The position numbers and the translations under genes are program-made. A stretch of 64,000 nucleotides of DNA from Longimicrobiales bacterium (GTDB lineage Bacteria; Gemmatimonadota; Gemmatimonadetes; Longimicrobiales; Gaopeijiaceae), in NCBI GenBank assembly GCA_965238005.1, contig OZ250165.1, forward strand, positions 992,001 through 1,056,000, in the 5' to 3' direction. Below are positions 43,346 to 49,427 of this stretch, in pieces. The first letter of the stretch is position 1; every line of letters begins with the position of its first letter. The notes below the pieces were generated by a model, which made no database searches, had not been told where the DNA came from, and saw nothing but the letters and a program-made list of their open reading frames with translations.

Positions 43346-43597
43346 ATGTTGAGGCAGATCGACAAATCAGAGCGCATCCAACGGCGATGGGTCCCCGCTG
43401 TGGGCGCCCTTACGCCCGGACGGCGCCTCGTAGCGCCGCGATCGGCGTGGGCCGAGGCTGCGCTCGGGATAGGGCCGAATCGATCCGAGCCGAGGAGCCA
43501 CATGAGGCATAGCAGACAGGATAGCAACGTCGCCCAACCGGAATACCGGCCAGCGACAGGAAAGAGACGCGCAGGATGGGAGGGAACCGTGCACTGA
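43346..43597 (+). CDS. Possible leader ORF (83 aa)
   Basis: GAGG RBS; stop lies 26 nt before the terminator hairpin. Confidence 0.3.
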   Translation: MLRQIDKSERIQRRWVPAVGALTPGRRLVAPRSAWAEAALGIGPNRSEPRSHMRHSRQDSNVAQPEYRPATGKRRAGWEGTVH

Positions 43598-43623
43598 GTA
43601 CGGGCCCCGACGGGATCTGCCCG

Positions 43624-43661
43624 AACGCCCCACCTGCGCAGGAAGCGGGTGGGGCGTTTTT
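43624..43661 (+). terminator. Intrinsic terminator upstream of the tRNA array
   Basis: AACGCCCCACCTGC / GCGGGTGGGGCGTT stem followed by a T-run. Confidence 0.75.
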
Positions 43662-43808
43662 CGTTCAGCGCCCACCCGAGCTGTTTGAAAACGATGCATG
43701 CGCGCCGGCGTTCCAAGCGCCCGGCGGCGTGTGGTGCTGAAAGAAAGAGACGCGACTCCCTGGACGCACCGCACGTCGTCGGTGCGTTTGGGCGGACCAG
43801 CAGACAAG

Positions 43809-43927
43809 GGGGCTGTAGCTCAGTCGTTAGAGCACTAGCCTCACCATTCATTCGCCCGCTTCTCGCGGGCCGAAGGCAGAGGATTATCGGAACCAAGTGG
43901 TCGCGGGTTCGAGTCCCGCCAGCCCTC
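43809..43927 (+). ncRNA. tRNA-shaped Y-RNA-like ncRNA
   Basis: Acceptor, D and T arms intact; anticodon arm replaced by a long stem containing GGCCGAAGGCAGAGGATTATC. Confidence 0.7.
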
Positions 43928-43994
43928 CTGCCTCTGTCTGATCGCCGGAAACAAGCTGCGTGAGCAGCGGCATCACTAGGTCTTGTGAGTTGTT

Positions 43995-44067
43995 TGCAGG
44001 GTAGGTGAGAGGCACCTCTCCGGGTCTCATGACGCGGAAACCGTGGGTTCGATTCCCGCCCCTGCGA
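43995..44067 (+). tRNA. tRNA-Met(CAT), degenerate
   Basis: CTCATGA loop; imperfect anticodon stem. Confidence 0.65.
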
Positions 44068-44072
44068 TCTAT

Positions 44073-44156
44073 GCCCCCGTGGCGGAACTGGTATACGCGG
44101 CCGGCTCAGACCCGGCTCCCGCATTCGGGTCGCAGGTTCGAATCCTGCCGGGGGTA
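44073..44156 (+). tRNA. tRNA-Leu(CAG)
   Basis: GCCGG-CTCAGAC-CCGGC; long variable arm. Confidence 0.9.
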
Positions 44157-44223
44157 CTGGGGTCGGGGCTAGCCCCTGCCGGAAGAATGCCGGCAAGAAG
44201 CCCGGTGAGGAGGAGGGAACTAT

Positions 44224-44307
44224 GGATGGTACCGTCGCATGGGCGGCAACCGGTCTTGAAAACCGGGGCGGCGTAACGGCTGGGGGGTTCGACTCCTCTG
44301 CCTTCCT
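44224..44307 (+). tRNA. tRNA-Ser(TGA)
   Basis: CCGGT-CTTGAAA-ACCGG; variable arm. Confidence 0.75.
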
Positions 44308-44313
44308 CTTCTT

Positions 44314-44397
44314 GGAATGCGAGTCGCATGGTGCGCAAGGTGGTTGCTAGCCACTGAGGGGCTCACGCCTCGTCAGGTTCGATTCCTGGGCATTCCT
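44314..44397 (+). tRNA. tRNA-Ser(GCT)
   Basis: GGTGG-TTGCTAG-CCACT; GGAATGC/GCATTCC acceptor. Confidence 0.8.
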
Positions 44398-44403
44398 CTT
44401 TGG

Positions 44404-44474
44404 AGCGGTATGGGAGCGGTCTCCCGCCGGGTCTCATGAGCCTGGCCTGGTCGGTTCGACTCCGACTGCCGCCA
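44404..44474 (+). tRNA. tRNA-Met(CAT), initiator-like
   Basis: 1:72 mismatch; CTCATGA loop. Confidence 0.7.
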
Positions 44475-44475
44475 T

Positions 44476-44548
44476 GTGGCCGAGGTCAAACAGGTTGCGG
44501 CACCGGGTTGTGAGCCCGGGGAAGTGGGTTCGAGCCCCACCGGCCACC
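44476..44548 (+). tRNA. tRNA-His(GTG)
   Basis: CCGGG-TTGTGAG-CCCGG; C73. Confidence 0.8.
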
Positions 44549-44549
44549 T

Positions 44550-44623
44550 TGGGGTGTGATCGTGACTGGTAACGATCCGGTCTCTTAAACCGGTCCATGT
44601 GGGTTCGAGTCCCACCGCCCCGA
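44550..44623 (+). tRNA. tRNA-Lys(CTT)
   Basis: CCGGT-CTCTTAA-ACCGG. Confidence 0.8.
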
Positions 44624-44627
44624 CTAT

Positions 44628-44699
44628 AGACCTGTAGCTCAGCGGTAGAGCATCCGTCTAATACGCGGAAGGCCGAAGGTTCGACTCCTTCTGGGTCTA
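44628..44699 (+). tRNA. tRNA-Ile(AAT), unusual A34
   Basis: TCCGT-CTAATAC-GCGGA; canonical D and T arms. Confidence 0.8.
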
Positions 44700-44703
44700 C
44701 TAT

Positions 44704-44863
44704 TGGAGTGTGGCCGATGTGGCAAGGCACTCGGTTGTTAGCCGAGACCATGTGGGTTCGAGCCGAGCGGTCCAGATGTCTACCGCATATGTGGCCCAGT
44801 TCATCTTCCGCGAGACGACTGAGGATTTCCGAAGGCGACCGCAGGTCAATCCCACCGCTCCAG
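44704..44863 (+). tRNA. tRNA-Asn(GTT) with 87-nt T-loop insert (44762-44848)
   Basis: CTCGG-TTGTTAG-CCGAG; GTGGG-TTCGA[insert]AT-CCCAC-CGCTCCA. Confidence 0.85.
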
Positions 44864-44866
44864 CTT

Positions 44867-44941
44867 GGTCTTGTGGGGGAGTCAGGAGTCCCCGCCTGGT
44901 TGTCAGCCAGGAGATCGTGGGTTCGAATCCCACCAGGACCG
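44867..44941 (+). tRNA. tRNA-Asp(GTC)
   Basis: CCTGG-TTGTCAG-CCAGG. Confidence 0.88.
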
Positions 44942-44962
44942 CTGCTTTATAGGCGATTTTTT

Positions 44963-45034
44963 GCCCCCTTCGTCTAATGGCTAGGATTGCGGCCTTTCAC
45001 GCCGCAGAAGACGGATCGAAACCGTCAGGGGGTA
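44963..45034 (+). tRNA. tRNA-Glu(TTC)
   Basis: GCGGC-CTTTCAC-GCCGC; T-loop ATCGAAA. Confidence 0.85.
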
Positions 45035-45037
45035 TCT

Positions 45038-45118
45038 GGAGGGGATGCCCCGGCGGTGGGGCAGCGGCCTGTAAAGCCGTGGCCATCGAGCAGGTTGGTT
45101 CGACTCCAACCCCCTTCA
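45038..45118 (+). tRNA. tRNA-Tyr(GTA)
   Basis: GCGGC-CTGTAAA-GCCGT. Confidence 0.85.
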
Positions 45119-45122
45119 CTAC

Positions 45123-45282
45123 AGAGTGGTAGCTTAGCGGCTAGAGCACGTGGTTCGGGACCACGGTGGCGTCGGTTCGAGCCGAGGCGGAGGTATGCTT
45201 ATCCGCGGTGCGGGCTAGAGGCAGACCGCCGAGACGAGCGAGGATCGCCGAAGGCGACCGCAGCTCAATCCGACTCACTCTA
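45123..45282 (+). tRNA. tRNA-Pro(CGG) with 87-nt T-loop insert (45181-45267)
   Basis: CGTGG-TTCGGGA-CCACG; GTCGG-TTCGA[insert]AT-CCGAC-TCACTCT. Confidence 0.85.
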
Positions 45283-45353
45283 TGACCCGTCGTCCAGCGG
45301 CAGGACACTGGGCTCTGAACCCAGAGACATAGGTTCGAATCCTATCGGGTCGG
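45283..45353 (+). tRNA. tRNA-Gln(CTG)
   Basis: CTGGG-CTCTGAA-CCCAG. Confidence 0.9.
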
Positions 45354-45359
45354 TTTATG

Positions 45360-45433
45360 CACCGTGCGTCGTGCGCTGGGCGCAGGCGGGGCTCCAAACC
45401 CCGCCTTGCTGGGTTCGATCCCTGCCACGGGCT
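45360..45433 (+). tRNA. tRNA-Trp(CCA), degenerate
   Basis: CGGGG-CTCCAAA-CCCCG; weak T and acceptor stems. Confidence 0.6.
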
Positions 45434-45436
45434 CTC

Positions 45437-45507
45437 CCTCGCCGGGGGAATGGTCGGCATCGGGACTACGAATCCTGATTGCGGTGGTTCGACTCCACCC
45501 GCGAGGA
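45437..45507 (+). tRNA. tRNA-Arg(ACG), degenerate D-arm
   Basis: CGGGA-CTACGAA-TCCTG. Confidence 0.7.
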
Positions 45508-45508
45508 C

Positions 45509-45577
45509 TGCTCCAGGGAAGGATTCCCCTCCGGGCTTCCGAAGCCTGGATGTCCGGTTCGAGTCCGGATGGGGCGA
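45509..45577 (+). tRNA. tRNA-Arg(CCG), shortened D-arm
   Basis: CGGGC-TTCCGAA-GCCTG. Confidence 0.65.
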
Positions 45578-45609
45578 TACGGTTCGAGTCCGACTCAGAT
45601 CTCTCTCAT

Positions 45610-45685
45610 GCTCCCTTAGCTCAGTCTGGCCAGAGCGGCAGGCTTACATCCTGCGCCGGCGGAGGTTCGAATCCTTCAGGGAGTA
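45610..45685 (+). tRNA. tRNA-Val(TAC)
   Basis: GCAGG-CTTACAT-CCTGC. Confidence 0.88.
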
Positions 45686-45712
45686 CTGACCCGTAGCCCC
45701 TCTCGGCACTTT

Positions 45713-45747
45713 GCGGGCGTATTCAGCTTCGGCGACGCCCGCCCCCA
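45713..45747 (+). pseudogene. Internally deleted tRNA remnant (Gly-like acceptor stem)
   Basis: GCGGGCG...CGCCCGC acceptor stem with most arms missing. Confidence 0.4.
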
Positions 45748-45748
45748 A

Positions 45749-45900
45749 CTGGAAGTGGCGCAGCGGCTAGCGTACCTGCTTCGGACGCAGGGGGTCGGTG
45801 GTTCGAGCCGAGCGGTCAGTCAGTGCTCGAAGGGCACGGCGGTCTCTGCGAGACCAGCGAGGAGGGCGAAGCCCGGCGCAGCTGAATCCACCCTTCCAGA
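45749..45900 (+). tRNA. tRNA-Pro(CGG) with 79-nt T-loop insert (45807-45885)
   Basis: CCTGC-TTCGGAC-GCAGG; GGTGG-TTCGA[insert]AT-CCACC-CTTCCAG. Confidence 0.82.
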
Positions 45901-46090
45901 CTCCTGCCTTCCCCGTCACTCCGGACGGTACGGGGCCGTCCATCAACGTTCTCGCATAGCCGTCCTCATGATGTACATGGCATGTACTGTACATGTCCTA
46001 GAATGTCATTTTACAGACTCGAAATCGTTGGGTCACGCCGTGCTGTTGCCCATGCAAACTGTTGGTCTACAAGCAGTTAGATCGTGAGAT

Positions 46091-47578
46091 GGTACCTCAC
46101 CACTGATAGGTAACGCTTTTCTCACCCCTGATGGGTGACAGTCTCGACCCGTAACGTGGCGCTCCTTCGACACGCTCTTGGAGCTGCCCATGCCATGGTT
46201 GGAGACCGATCCCATGAACGAACGCAAGCGATTCATCCTCGAGGCCACCGCGAGCCTCTTCTCCCACTCCGAACTCTGCCGACGCTACAACATCAGCCGC
46301 AAGACGGGCTACAAGTGGCTCGAACGATACGAGACCCAAGGACCCGACGGGCTGCTCGACCGCTCCCATCGGCCCCATTGCTGTCCCCACGCTACTGAGC
46401 CCCACATCCTCGAGGCTGCCTTCGAGCTCCGCCGTCGTCGACCCCGGTGGGGAGCTGCCAAGATCCTAGGCCGCCTCCTCGAGGTGCACCCCGACTGGTC
46501 GCTACCCGCGCCCCAGGTCCTGCACAGACACTTCCTGCGCGAGGGCCTGGTCAACAAGCTGCGGCGCCGACGTAAATCCTCTCATCCCGGTCGACCCACC
46601 GCGCCCTTCGATGCGCCCAACTCCATCTGGTCCGCCGACTTCAAGGGGCAGTTCAAGACCCTCGACGGCGTCTACTGCTACCCGCTCACCGTCCAGGATG
46701 GCTTCAGCCGCTACCTGCTCGCTTGTCAGGGCCTCTCAGGGACCACCTACGCCGGTTCCAGACGTGTTTTCACCCGCCTCTTCCACGAGTTCGGGATCCC
46801 CGACCGCATCCGTACCGACAACGGTACTCCCTTTGCCTCCATAGCCTTAGGGCGCCTCTCCAGGCTCTCCGTCTGGTGGATCAAGCTCGGCATCCTGCCC
46901 GATCTCATCGAGCCCGCATCTCCCCAGCAGAACGGCCGCCACGAACGCATGCACAAAGACCTCAAGGCTGAGGCCACCATCCCGCCCGCCGGAAACCGAT
47001 CCGCTCAGCAGAAACGCTTCAATGCCTTCCGCATTGATTTCAACGAGATCCGGCCCCACGAGGCCCACGGCCAGAGGCCGCCCGCCTCCGTCTACGAGCC
47101 CTCAACCCGTCCCTTCCCCAGCAAGCTCTTGACCCCCGACTACCCCGCCCACTTCGAGACCCGTAAGGTCTCCATCAACGGCGGCATCCGATGGCACTCC
47201 GCCTGGGCCAACGTCTCTCATCTGCTCGGCGGCGAATACATTGGCCTCGAGGAGGTCGCCGACGATGTCTGGGCTGTCTACTTCGGTCCCGTCGCCCTCG
47301 GTTGGCTTCACGTCCGAAAAGCTGCCATCCTCGATCACGATGGCTCCTCGTCCCGTAATCCACGACGCTGAGGCCGCGTGAACTGCCCAGCCCCTCAGAC
47401 GTCGACGCGAACCGCTACCTTCGTGGAACTCCGCTCGCTTCTACTCCCCTGCGCTCCGGCGCAGCGGAAGCTTCTGACTCCACCGGTGGAGGTAACAAAA
47501 AAAACAGCAGCTTACCTGACAAGAACTGTCACCCATCAGGGGTGTGTAACTGTTGGTACCCATCAGGGGTACCGCTCA
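46091..47578 (+). mobile_element. IS481-family element
   Basis: Doubled subterminal repeats CTGTCACCCATCAGGGGTG inverted at both ends; no TSD seen. Confidence 0.88.
46190..47371 (+). CDS. IS481 transposase
   Basis: MPW..., ISRKTGYKWLERY, WSADFKG, RTDNGTPF, QNGRHERMH. Confidence 0.95.
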   Translation: MPWLETDPMNERKRFILEATASLFSHSELCRRYNISRKTGYKWLERYETQGPDGLLDRSHRPHCCPHATEPHILEAAFELRRRRPRWGAAKILGRLLEVHPDWSLPAPQVLHRHFLREGLVNKLRRRRKSSHPGRPTAPFDAPNSIWSADFKGQFKTLDGVYCYPLTVQDGFSRYLLACQGLSGTTYAGSRRVFTRLFHEFGIPDRIRTDNGTPFASIALGRLSRLSVWWIKLGILPDLIEPASPQQNGRHERMHKDLKAEATIPPAGNRSAQQKRFNAFRIDFNEIRPHEAHGQRPPASVYEPSTRPFPSKLLTPDYPAHFETRKVSINGGIRWHSAWANVSHLLGGEYIGLEEVADDVWAVYFGPVALGWLHVRKAAILDHDGSSSRNPRR

Positions 47579-49082: not shown

Positions 49083-49142
49083 GCTAGTGTTCCACGGATG
49101 CACCGTGCCCTCGACAGGCCGAGACACCTTGGCAACGGGACA

Positions 49143-49427
49143 CTAGAGCCCGAGACACGCGCGCGCGTCCTCCACGGCGAGCCCGGCGACGCGGACGACC
49201 TTCCTCTTGCCGCTGTGACCGCGGGTCACCTCGACGGAGCTTTTCGGAACGCCCAACACCTTCGCCATGACACGGATCAGCTCGGCGTTGGCGGCCCCGT
49301 CCACCGGGGGCGCTGCAAGGCGCACCTTGAGGGCGTCTCCGTGAAGGCCCACCACCTCCGAGCGGCTGGCCCGGGGCTGGGCGTGGATCGCGATCTCCAC
49401 GCCGCCTTCAAGCTCTCGGACCGTCAC
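49143..49427 (-). CDS. DUF167/YggU-family protein
   Basis: QPRASRS, APPVDGAAN. Confidence 0.92.
   Translation of the reverse strand: MTVRELEGGVEIAIHAQPRASRSEVVGLHGDALKVRLAAPPVDGAANAELIRVMAKVLGVPKSSVEVTRGHSGKRKVVRVAGLAVEDARACLGL

Follow-up and report, generated by a model that had tools for sequence, protein, structure and literature searches.

Why should three transfer RNA (tRNA) genes of one bacterial array be interrupted at the same point of the T-loop by short, structured, non-coding inserts? The question arises from a 64,000-nucleotide stretch of DNA, hereafter the window, from a Longimicrobiales bacterium of the family Gaopeijiaceae (GenBank assembly GCA_965238005.1, contig OZ250165.1, positions 992,001 to 1,056,000 of the forward strand). 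Computational analysis of these inserts, here named INS, concluded that they belong to an undescribed family of small elements which, as far as sampled, is confined to part of one Gemmatimonadota family, and that INS is rather likely to be a small, non-coding, non-autonomous mobile DNA element targeting a T-loop-like sequence. The genome from which the window was taken is referred to as G000, and both window coordinates and C1 genome coordinates are used.

Three tRNA genes split at one T-loop position

The three inserts and their host genes lie in an accessory array of about 20 tRNA or tRNA-like genes and were delimited as follows.

43809..45901, + strand: accessory tRNA array (ARAGORN, Rfam)
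44704..44761, + strand: tRNA-Asn(GTT), 5' part, ending at the T-loop sequence TTCGA (direct reading, ARAGORN)
44762..44848, + strand: INS copy 1, 87 nt, in tRNA-Asn (covariance model R1, 84.8 bits)
44849..44864, + strand: tRNA-Asn(GTT), 3' part, made up of AT, the 3' strand of the T-stem and the 3' strand of the acceptor stem (direct reading, ARAGORN)
45123..45180, + strand: tRNA-Pro(CGG) number 1, 5' part (direct reading, ARAGORN)
45181..45267, + strand: INS copy 2, 87 nt (model R1, 91.5 bits; direct reading; pair counts)
45268..45282, + strand: tRNA-Pro(CGG) number 1, 3' part (direct reading, ARAGORN)
45749..45806, + strand: tRNA-Pro(CGG) number 2, 5' part (direct reading, ARAGORN)
45807..45885, + strand: INS copy 3, 79 nt, with a shorter hairpin 1 (model R1, 58.2 bits)
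45886..45901, + strand: tRNA-Pro(CGG) number 2, 3' part (direct reading, ARAGORN)

The initial annotation had proposed that inserts of 87, 87 and 79 nt occupy one T-loop position without extended target duplication, and direct reading bore out both points: GGTTCGA stands directly before and ATCC directly after each of the three inserts, which split the loop as TTCGA|AT, and neither target duplication nor terminal inverted repeats were found at any of them. When the inserts were cut out, ARAGORN called tRNA-Asn(GTT), tRNA-Pro(CGG) and tRNA-Pro(CGG) spanning the junctions; from the uncut sequence it yielded only truncated or false calls for the three split tRNAs. An A is present on either side of every junction, and this shared base leaves a 1-nt ambiguity in the insertion point. 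The ends can be read as GCCGAG...NTCA at tRNA position 58/59 or as AGCCGAG...NTC at 57/58; copies that lie in TTCA|AAT loops fit only the second frame.

Intact genes for tRNA-Asn(GTT) and tRNA-Pro(CGG) are present elsewhere in G000. The orthologous array was not found in the same-genus genomes G001 and G002 or in G011, and a search of G001 and G002 with the array DNA matched only the inserts. Because intact counterparts exist and the array was not found in two genomes of the same genus, the three split genes are redundant, and most likely they are now pseudogenes.

Two covarying hairpins

The order of parts read from the letters at the outset holds in the inserts, each of which consists of GCCGA, hairpin 1, GAGAC, hairpin 2 and a final A. 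In copy 2 these parts are placed as follows.

45181-45185, + strand: GCCGA
45186-45230, + strand: hairpin 1
45231-45235, + strand: GAGAC
45236-45266, + strand: hairpin 2
45267, + strand: terminal A

INS copies range from 79 to 104 nt in length and contain no open reading frame (ORF). Among 93 genomic copies, 97.3% of the pair cells were paired and compensatory (double) changes occurred in all 13 modelled pairs; the covariation score was 0.508, compared with 0.123 ± 0.010 for shuffles (0 of 500 as high), and slid registers did not exceed 0.046. In the 82 hits of an independent metagenomic set, 97.1% of the cells were paired, 11 of the 13 pairs showed compensatory changes and the score was 0.448 versus 0.100. 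The covariation first noticed among three inserts was therefore recovered, strongly and for both hairpins, in the genomic and the metagenomic set. Both alignments were fitted to the covariance model, which favours the model; despite this, the slid controls and the number of pair types argue that the helices are real, and the pairing pattern is far beyond chance.

On the given strand, G:T pairs exceed A:C pairs (21 versus 7). Hairpin 2 ends in a triloop in 69 of the 93 genomic copies, and in 52 of the 93 the loop is C(GNA)G, a type that is unusually stable in DNA and uncommon as a preferred RNA loop. The two covarying hairpins, the G:T excess and the GNA triloops are all observed, and would suit folding of either DNA or RNA.

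Family membership and taxonomic range

Covariance model R1 was built from nine G000 copies found via a profile of the three inserts. With R1, these nine training copies score 46.6-96.9 bits; one truncated copy was found besides them, giving about 10 clear copies in G000, and about 21 shorter variants borne by MITEs (miniature transposable elements with inverted repeats) score 26-32 bits. Copies of G000 from unrelated loci align only from GCCGAG to ...NTCA, and their flanks share only GGTTCGA and ATCC. A rough tree groups the copies partly by genome and not by tRNA type.

Among 60 relatives searched with R1 at E ≤ 1e-3, INS was present in 20 of 36 genomes of the same family; family f2 gave matches in 0 of 12 genomes and family f3 in 2 of 12, counts that take in G037 and G056, both marked unpublished. 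The two f3 matches (31 and 35 bits) were rejected as chance matches that are without T-loop flanks and read like coding DNA. In a phylum-wide sample, INS was present in 1 of 16 further same-family genomes and was not found in 134 sampled genomes from eleven other families of the phylum (0/134).

Pattern scans gave 82 model hits, 79 of them distinct, in metagenomes. In the genome-collection scan, true INS was found among the matches listed in at least 3 loci of 80, all of them Gemmatimonadota metagenome-assembled genomes, and most other hits among the matches listed reached only 18-30 bits; two candidates (L149, 37.4 bits, and L206, 28.5 bits) were rejected as chance matches in coding DNA. No true INS was found among 80 pattern-selected loci from viral contigs. 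The novelty of the inserts also stood up to comparison with Rfam, which the initial annotation had named as a check: cmscan of 43500-46500 with E up to 5 matched only tRNA-type models, on the flanking tRNAs, and no Rfam family on the inserts.

Target sites and setting of the copies

T-loops of tRNAs are among the most conserved genomic sequences and are known landing sites of large integrating elements. The commonest targets are real tRNA T-loops, and G000 has 27 GGTTCGAATCC sites. Copies are preceded by TTCGA in 54 of 91 cases and followed by ATCC in 55 of 91, with CTCC, the tmRNA-type T-loop sequence (tmRNA, transfer-messenger RNA), following another 12 of 91; all 12 tmRNA-type copies tested lie outside any tmRNA gene.

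That the inserts lie in full-length tRNA genes, as first described, is correct for the window's three, which are the only ones among 93 genomic copies whose removal restores a complete tRNA gene; in metagenomes a tRNA was restored in at most 3 of 71 testable copies, which are Pro-like with imperfect 3' ends. What the first reading of the window had not seen is that most family members occupy the T-loop of a partial tRNA or tmRNA 3' copy that shares its strand with an intact tRNA lying just upstream. In a typical unit the intact tRNA is followed, after a short spacer, by a T-arm-like 5' piece whose last letters are GGTTCGA, then by INS and finally by the 3' end of that tRNA copied from A58 on. 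Such units were seen behind tRNA-Pro (three anticodons), tRNA-Cys, -Arg, -Ser, -Gly and -Val, and behind tmRNA. An intact tRNA or tmRNA gene within 400 nt upstream was on the same strand for 43 copies and on the opposite strand for 2 (91 copies examined), and the corresponding counts in metagenomes were 40 and 0. A hairpin loop as target was considered and set aside: a T-stem with 4 or 5 of its 5 pairs, counted as intact, adjoins the insert in 37 of 90 copies, compared with 25.2 ± 3.3 for shuffled pairings, a modest effect.

Insertion sites outside tRNA T-loops have the sequence GA^AT in common. In a MITE family that has 280-bp and 127-bp forms, a short INS-like module lies immediately inward of the right end, at a site reading CTCGA^ATGG, and a sister MITE family reads CTCGACTGG without INS. 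In genome G009, a 94-nt INS lies in the C-terminal part of an IS91-like transposase ORF (L052 and L104, on two contigs) at CGAGA^ATCC, where the reading frames on either side meet exactly, in phase, at the insert boundaries. The anticodon stem-loop of a tRNA-Pro fragment is another site (CCTGA^ATGG), and head-to-tail INS dimers adjoin directly at ...TCA|GCCGAG. The covariance search proposed in the initial annotation thus recovered many more copies, with the T-loop sequence as the commonest site; it also recovered a few copies at non-tRNA sites, and none of the candidate enzymes examined tracks INS.

Partial tRNA-Ser(CGA) 3' copies (C1, e.g. 429684, 436997 and 4450183) and scars of tRNA-Lys, -Ile, -Gln, -Arg and -Pro carry no INS. 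The tRNA 3' scars in C1 point to many past island integrations.

Empty sites and the insertion model

Alleles lacking INS were found at three tRNA genes. In run X2, one contig joins 44760 to 44848 in a variant bearing single-nucleotide polymorphisms (depth 8.5) and so skips exactly the 87 nt in tRNA-Asn, although the library type is not on record and the letters between the two sides of the joint are entered as "not known", a gap that tells against this piece of evidence for mobility. Nearby substitutions indicate that the contig came from a variant strain and not from spliced RNA of the source strain. At tRNA-Ser(GCT), where G000 is empty, the same-genus genome G002 carries about 137 extra nt; this block has INS at its end, and an 18-nt repeat of the tRNA 3' end flanks it. 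G000 is empty at tRNA-Pro(GGG) too, where about 230 nt with INS at their end are present in both G001 and G002. The comparison of orthologous arrays for empty alleles, as originally envisaged, therefore succeeded in so far as empty sites exist at these three tRNAs, and failed for the array as a whole, of which no ortholog was found in the three genomes named above.

In the model that we favour, INS would enter the short target (T)TCR^AAT(CC) in a single orientation, duplicating none of it and having no terminal inverted repeats; the commonest genomic form of this target is the tRNA or tmRNA T-loop at 57/58 or 58/59. INS could afterwards be lost precisely. INS probably acts as folded single-stranded DNA, and a trans-acting enzyme would most likely read the two hairpins, the pentamers GCCGA and GAGAC before each of them, and the terminal ...NTCA on that folded strand. 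The right end of INS, ...NTCA, resembles the target TTCGA/TTCA, and the enzyme's predicted cuts lie behind TCR(A) of the target and behind NTC(A) of the element end. Since a T-loop insertion that hits a needed tRNA would kill the cell, INS would persist only where the target is dispensable: in redundant array tRNAs, in partial 3' copies of tRNA or tmRNA that adjoin intact genes or lie at the borders of islands, and at a few sites of similar sequence. Near-absence of INS from complete tRNA genes is expected if insertion destroys the tRNA. The T-loop-targeting mobile element put forward in the initial annotation fits the sharp ends, the empty sites, the partial clustering by genome and the GNA triloops, with the correction that it also lands at non-tRNA GA^AT sites.

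RNA-level explanations

The orientation of INS, which is that of the tRNA sense strand in the copies counted above and also the sense strand in the IS91-like ORF of G009, with the frame restored exactly on removal, could also reflect a function in RNA. INS might be an RNA-level intervening sequence or a tolerated expansion that is spliced out, is cut to leave a two-piece tRNA, or protrudes from the tRNA elbow, in which case the three split tRNAs would be functional. By direct reading the five-base motif of the T-loop is unbroken in the 58/59 frame, and the elbow would tolerate an insertion there structurally; the unpaired motifs show conservation, and covariation is seen in the helices. The orientation bias, however, can follow from an asymmetric target, and no single-copy tRNA or tmRNA gene was seen with INS, the three copies in complete tRNAs being all redundant and the tested tmRNA-type copies all lying outside the tmRNA gene. 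A tRNA splicing endonuclease of the EndA type (PF01974), which an archaeal-type (BHB) tRNA intron would call for, had 0 hits in G000, with positive controls in 4 archaea; up to an E of 5 the Rfam comparison brought up neither an intron nor a ribozyme, INS is too small for the known self-splicing introns, group I introns being usually longer than 200 nt, and the X2 variant strain has an empty allele in its DNA. We regard this explanation as improbable, and the undescribed, post-transcriptionally removed intervening sequence that had been offered as the second possibility at the outset found no positive support in the copy counts, the endonuclease search or the Rfam comparison.

A different role in RNA is suggested by one intergenic position: a unit lies syntenically between tRNA-Pro(CGG) and tRNA-Ser(CGA) in G000, G011, G023, G024, G034, G035 and G036, which represent seven genera. 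INS might then be a structured RNA useful to the host, be it as a signal for processing, as a decoy that draws off factors binding T-loops or as a small RNA; it would be housed in tRNA-like scaffolds inside tRNA operons, and the array copies would be incidental. At the Ser(GCT) locus the tRNA 3' copy behind INS stays identical while the adjoining trailer has diverged, and pairing of about 97% is maintained over about 170 copies. Units are nevertheless present or absent between genomes of the same genus, many genomes of the family, complete ones included, are without INS, copies also sit in a MITE and in a transposase gene, and the extended closing stem is not consistently kept, all of which make a host-useful RNA highly improbable.

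Composite units and gene blocks

Co-oriented INS units also bound multi-kilobase blocks anchored at an intact tRNA or tmRNA gene. In G034 (L250), tRNA-Cys is followed by a unit, 3.6 kb, a second unit, 4.9 kb and a third unit; in G011 (L248), tRNA-Arg is followed by a unit, 5.6 kb and a second unit; and in G018 (L249), tmRNA is followed by a unit, 8.9 kb and a second unit. No Pfam integrase was found in the blocks of G034 and G011. An Abi_C protein is encoded in one of the blocks at these three loci, and a different block has a large serine recombinase. Tandem units without ORFs have periods of 142-156 nt. In some composite units the piece before INS is a short T-arm half, and in Cys-type and tmRNA-type units the 5' flank holds an inverted copy of the tRNA 3' end; an extended closing stem showed no consistent compensation in 12 Cys-type units.

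These arrangements would be in keeping with INS as the folded recombination site, similar to attC or to the attP of phage CTX, of a site-specific system with the T-loop as its primary site and with blocks stacked behind the tRNA; the 87-nt array inserts would then be empty minimal cassettes. As such a model predicts, behind each unit stands the portion of the tRNA lying downstream of the crossover, and the covarying structure is rich in GNA triloops. A dedicated recombinase, on the other hand, was not identified: integron integrases are missing from most INS-bearing genomes, 5 were found in sister families without INS, and the block of G018 carries the large serine recombinase instead. Units 2 and 3 of G034 consist of tRNA-Cys from the anticodon loop on plus a shared arm of about 110 nt and look like an ordinary island att site that carries INS, and the blocks contain several genes in both orientations. 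We consider the recombination-site explanation rather unlikely. Unlikely, too, is its extension to a previously unknown integron-like gene-capture system anchored at tRNA and tmRNA genes, with INS as its folded single-strand site; there the blocks would begin with a spare tRNA 3' end and end in a co-oriented INS, and the inserts of 79-87 nt may be cargo-free cassettes.

Evidence bearing against the insertion model

The non-autonomous mobile element preferred here has several results against it in addition to the gap in the X2 record. Single-sequence folding energies of the three inserts were not unusual compared with shuffles, whether computed as RNA (z -1.19 to +0.78) or as DNA on both strands (z -1.26 to +1.01), so that structural support comes from covariation only. 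The copies inside G000 are, judged by eye, only about 80-85% alike, and no very recent jump is thereby documented. Several tRNA scars in G000 that have a T-loop lack INS, which indicates that target occupancy is far from saturated. Simple insertion does not explain the origin of the composite units, and occupation of the Pro(CGG)-Ser(CGA) intergenic position in at least seven genera may mean that INS is a retained, useful feature there.

The search for a mobilising enzyme adds to these points. A search for the Y1 HUH transposase (PF01797) gave 0 hits in G000, and of the 36 family genomes only 1 has it (G019, which is without INS), with positive controls in 6 of 14 genomes; a specific REP/RAYT or IS200/IS605 partner (REP, repetitive extragenic palindromic element; RAYT, REP-associated tyrosine transposase; IS, insertion sequence) is thus not upheld. 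When G000 was searched with half-element profiles, no gene turned up between a left and a right half, the arrangement that an autonomous form would show. Three further candidates were rejected. The single TnpB has an unrelated right end and does not track INS; IS91-type Y2 transposases occur in 11 of 20 INS-bearing and 5 of 16 INS-free family genomes, and do not track it either; nor do integron integrases, which scored over the cut-off in 14 of 61 genomes (8 of 21 INS-bearing genomes, 1 of 16 INS-free family genomes, and 5 in the sister families). The ORFs adjoining 11 orphan copies are housekeeping genes.

G000 itself has an integron-type integrase gene (C1 3441723-3442649, + strand; TIGR02249, 326.6 bits, above the cut-off), with no clear INS adjoining.

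Neighbouring features

The genes of the array are dense and all on one strand. A tex-like gene flanks the array on one side and an IS481-family transposase gene on the other, and MITEs with the INS-like module occur elsewhere in the genome.

46178-47371, + strand: gene for a transposase of the IS481 family with HTH, rve and LZ_Tnp_IS481 domains, next downstream after the array
C1 2352612-2352891 and C1 1563899-1564025, as examples: MITE family with the INS-like module, ends CTAGTGTGGTGTCCCAGAAGT, about 20 copies

The array is headed by a tRNA-Pro(CGG)-like gene (43809-43928, + strand) with a 46-nt insert in the anticodon loop (33/34) and a poor anticodon stem; this insert is not of the INS family, and in Rfam the full stretch reaches 46.7 bits as tRNA. 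At 43994-44069 (+ strand), ARAGORN called a tRNA with a two-base anticodon (tRNA-???), which at 28 bits is just below the Rfam tRNA threshold. A degenerate tRNA-like stretch at 45509-45609 (+ strand) has two T-arm-like pieces in succession, TCCGGTTCGAGTCCGGA and then CGGTTCGAGTCCG, and resembles the doubled T-arm pieces that precede INS elsewhere, but is without INS.

The 127-bp form of the MITE differs from the 280-bp form by a deletion between two CGAGCC repeats. A second abundant repeat (window about 49090-49170, with many genome sites) ends in ...GGCCGAGACACTTTGGTAACGGGACACTAG; this end aligns with the first MITE's end and has no INS at the matching position.

Comparison with known systems

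Full-text literature searches found no description of a tiny non-coding bacterial element homing to T-loops. INS would explain the origin of partial tRNA copies with inserts beside intact tRNA genes, and it would affect the annotation of tRNAs, since split genes are missed or mis-called by tRNA finders. It points to an enzyme that would recognise a defined folded structure and cut at TTCR^AAT; if the units were indeed recombination sites of stacked blocks, they would represent a new way for bacteria to collect foreign genes.

A classical MITE was rejected as a description of INS, whose ends, GCCGAG... and ...GCAGCTCA, are not inverted repeats and which makes no duplication. Palindromic repeats such as the Rickettsia palindromic elements, Correia/NEMIS and ERIC are, like INS, short, structured and non-coding and can sit in genes, RNA genes included. 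Correia/NEMIS and ERIC have inverted-repeat ends, and some duplicate a short target, whereas in INS there are two distinct hairpins, and its target resembles a T-loop and is not duplicated; none of these repeats is known to home to T-loops.

Tyrosine-integrase islands and phages that integrate into tRNA or tmRNA T-loops share with INS the sublocation of the target, the tRNA 3' end repeated downstream of an intact tRNA, and tandem units. Sublocation classes for integration in tRNA and tmRNA genes, T-loop region included, were reportedly set out by Williams in 2002. In the window copies, by contrast, the insert measures 79-87 nt in all, and neither an integrase nor a tRNA 3' repeat is present; the blocks of G034 and G011 differ in having no Pfam integrase, although composite units elsewhere do have the repeat.

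Group I introns of the tRNA anticodon loop and the tmRNA T-loop, as described in PMC11915505, likewise have a defined position and restore the gene on removal; those in tmRNA T-loops are given there an average of 293-414 nt and have a catalytic core, whereas INS has 79-104 nt, no match in Rfam, and does not follow the rule of a U at -1 and a terminal G (PMC11915505). Among the unusual tRNAs listed in PMC7609411 there are no T-loop inserts.

Integron attC sites and the CTX phage attP resemble INS in keeping structure more than sequence, in their imperfect hairpins with unpaired conserved bases, in being co-oriented at the 3' end of gene blocks, and in recombination at one end of the folded site. 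In contrast to attC, INS has by direct reading no GTTRRRY core at its ends and no adjoining integron integrase, IntI does not track it, its blocks are multi-gene, and its primary site would be a tRNA T-loop.

INS was not filed under the IS200/IS605-REP family, because Y1 was not found, the other enzymes examined do not track INS and no autonomous form was found in G000. It differs from the elements mobilised by Y1 HUH TnpA or RAYT, that is, palindrome-associated transposable elements (PATEs) of IS200/IS605 and REP elements with their paired form REPIN, in that the defining PF01797 was not found in G000 or in 35 of 36 family genomes, in that hairpin 2 reaches to 1 nt from the end, and in having a tRNA T-loop sequence as target. 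In other respects INS has the features by which PATEs and REP elements are known: small size, no coding capacity, no inverted ends, no target duplication, and insertion in one orientation 3' of a fixed short sequence, which is TTCGA in the 54 of 91 copies noted above. As in those elements, conserved bases lie 5' of the foot of the hairpins and the right end resembles the target, features which may point to folded single-stranded DNA.

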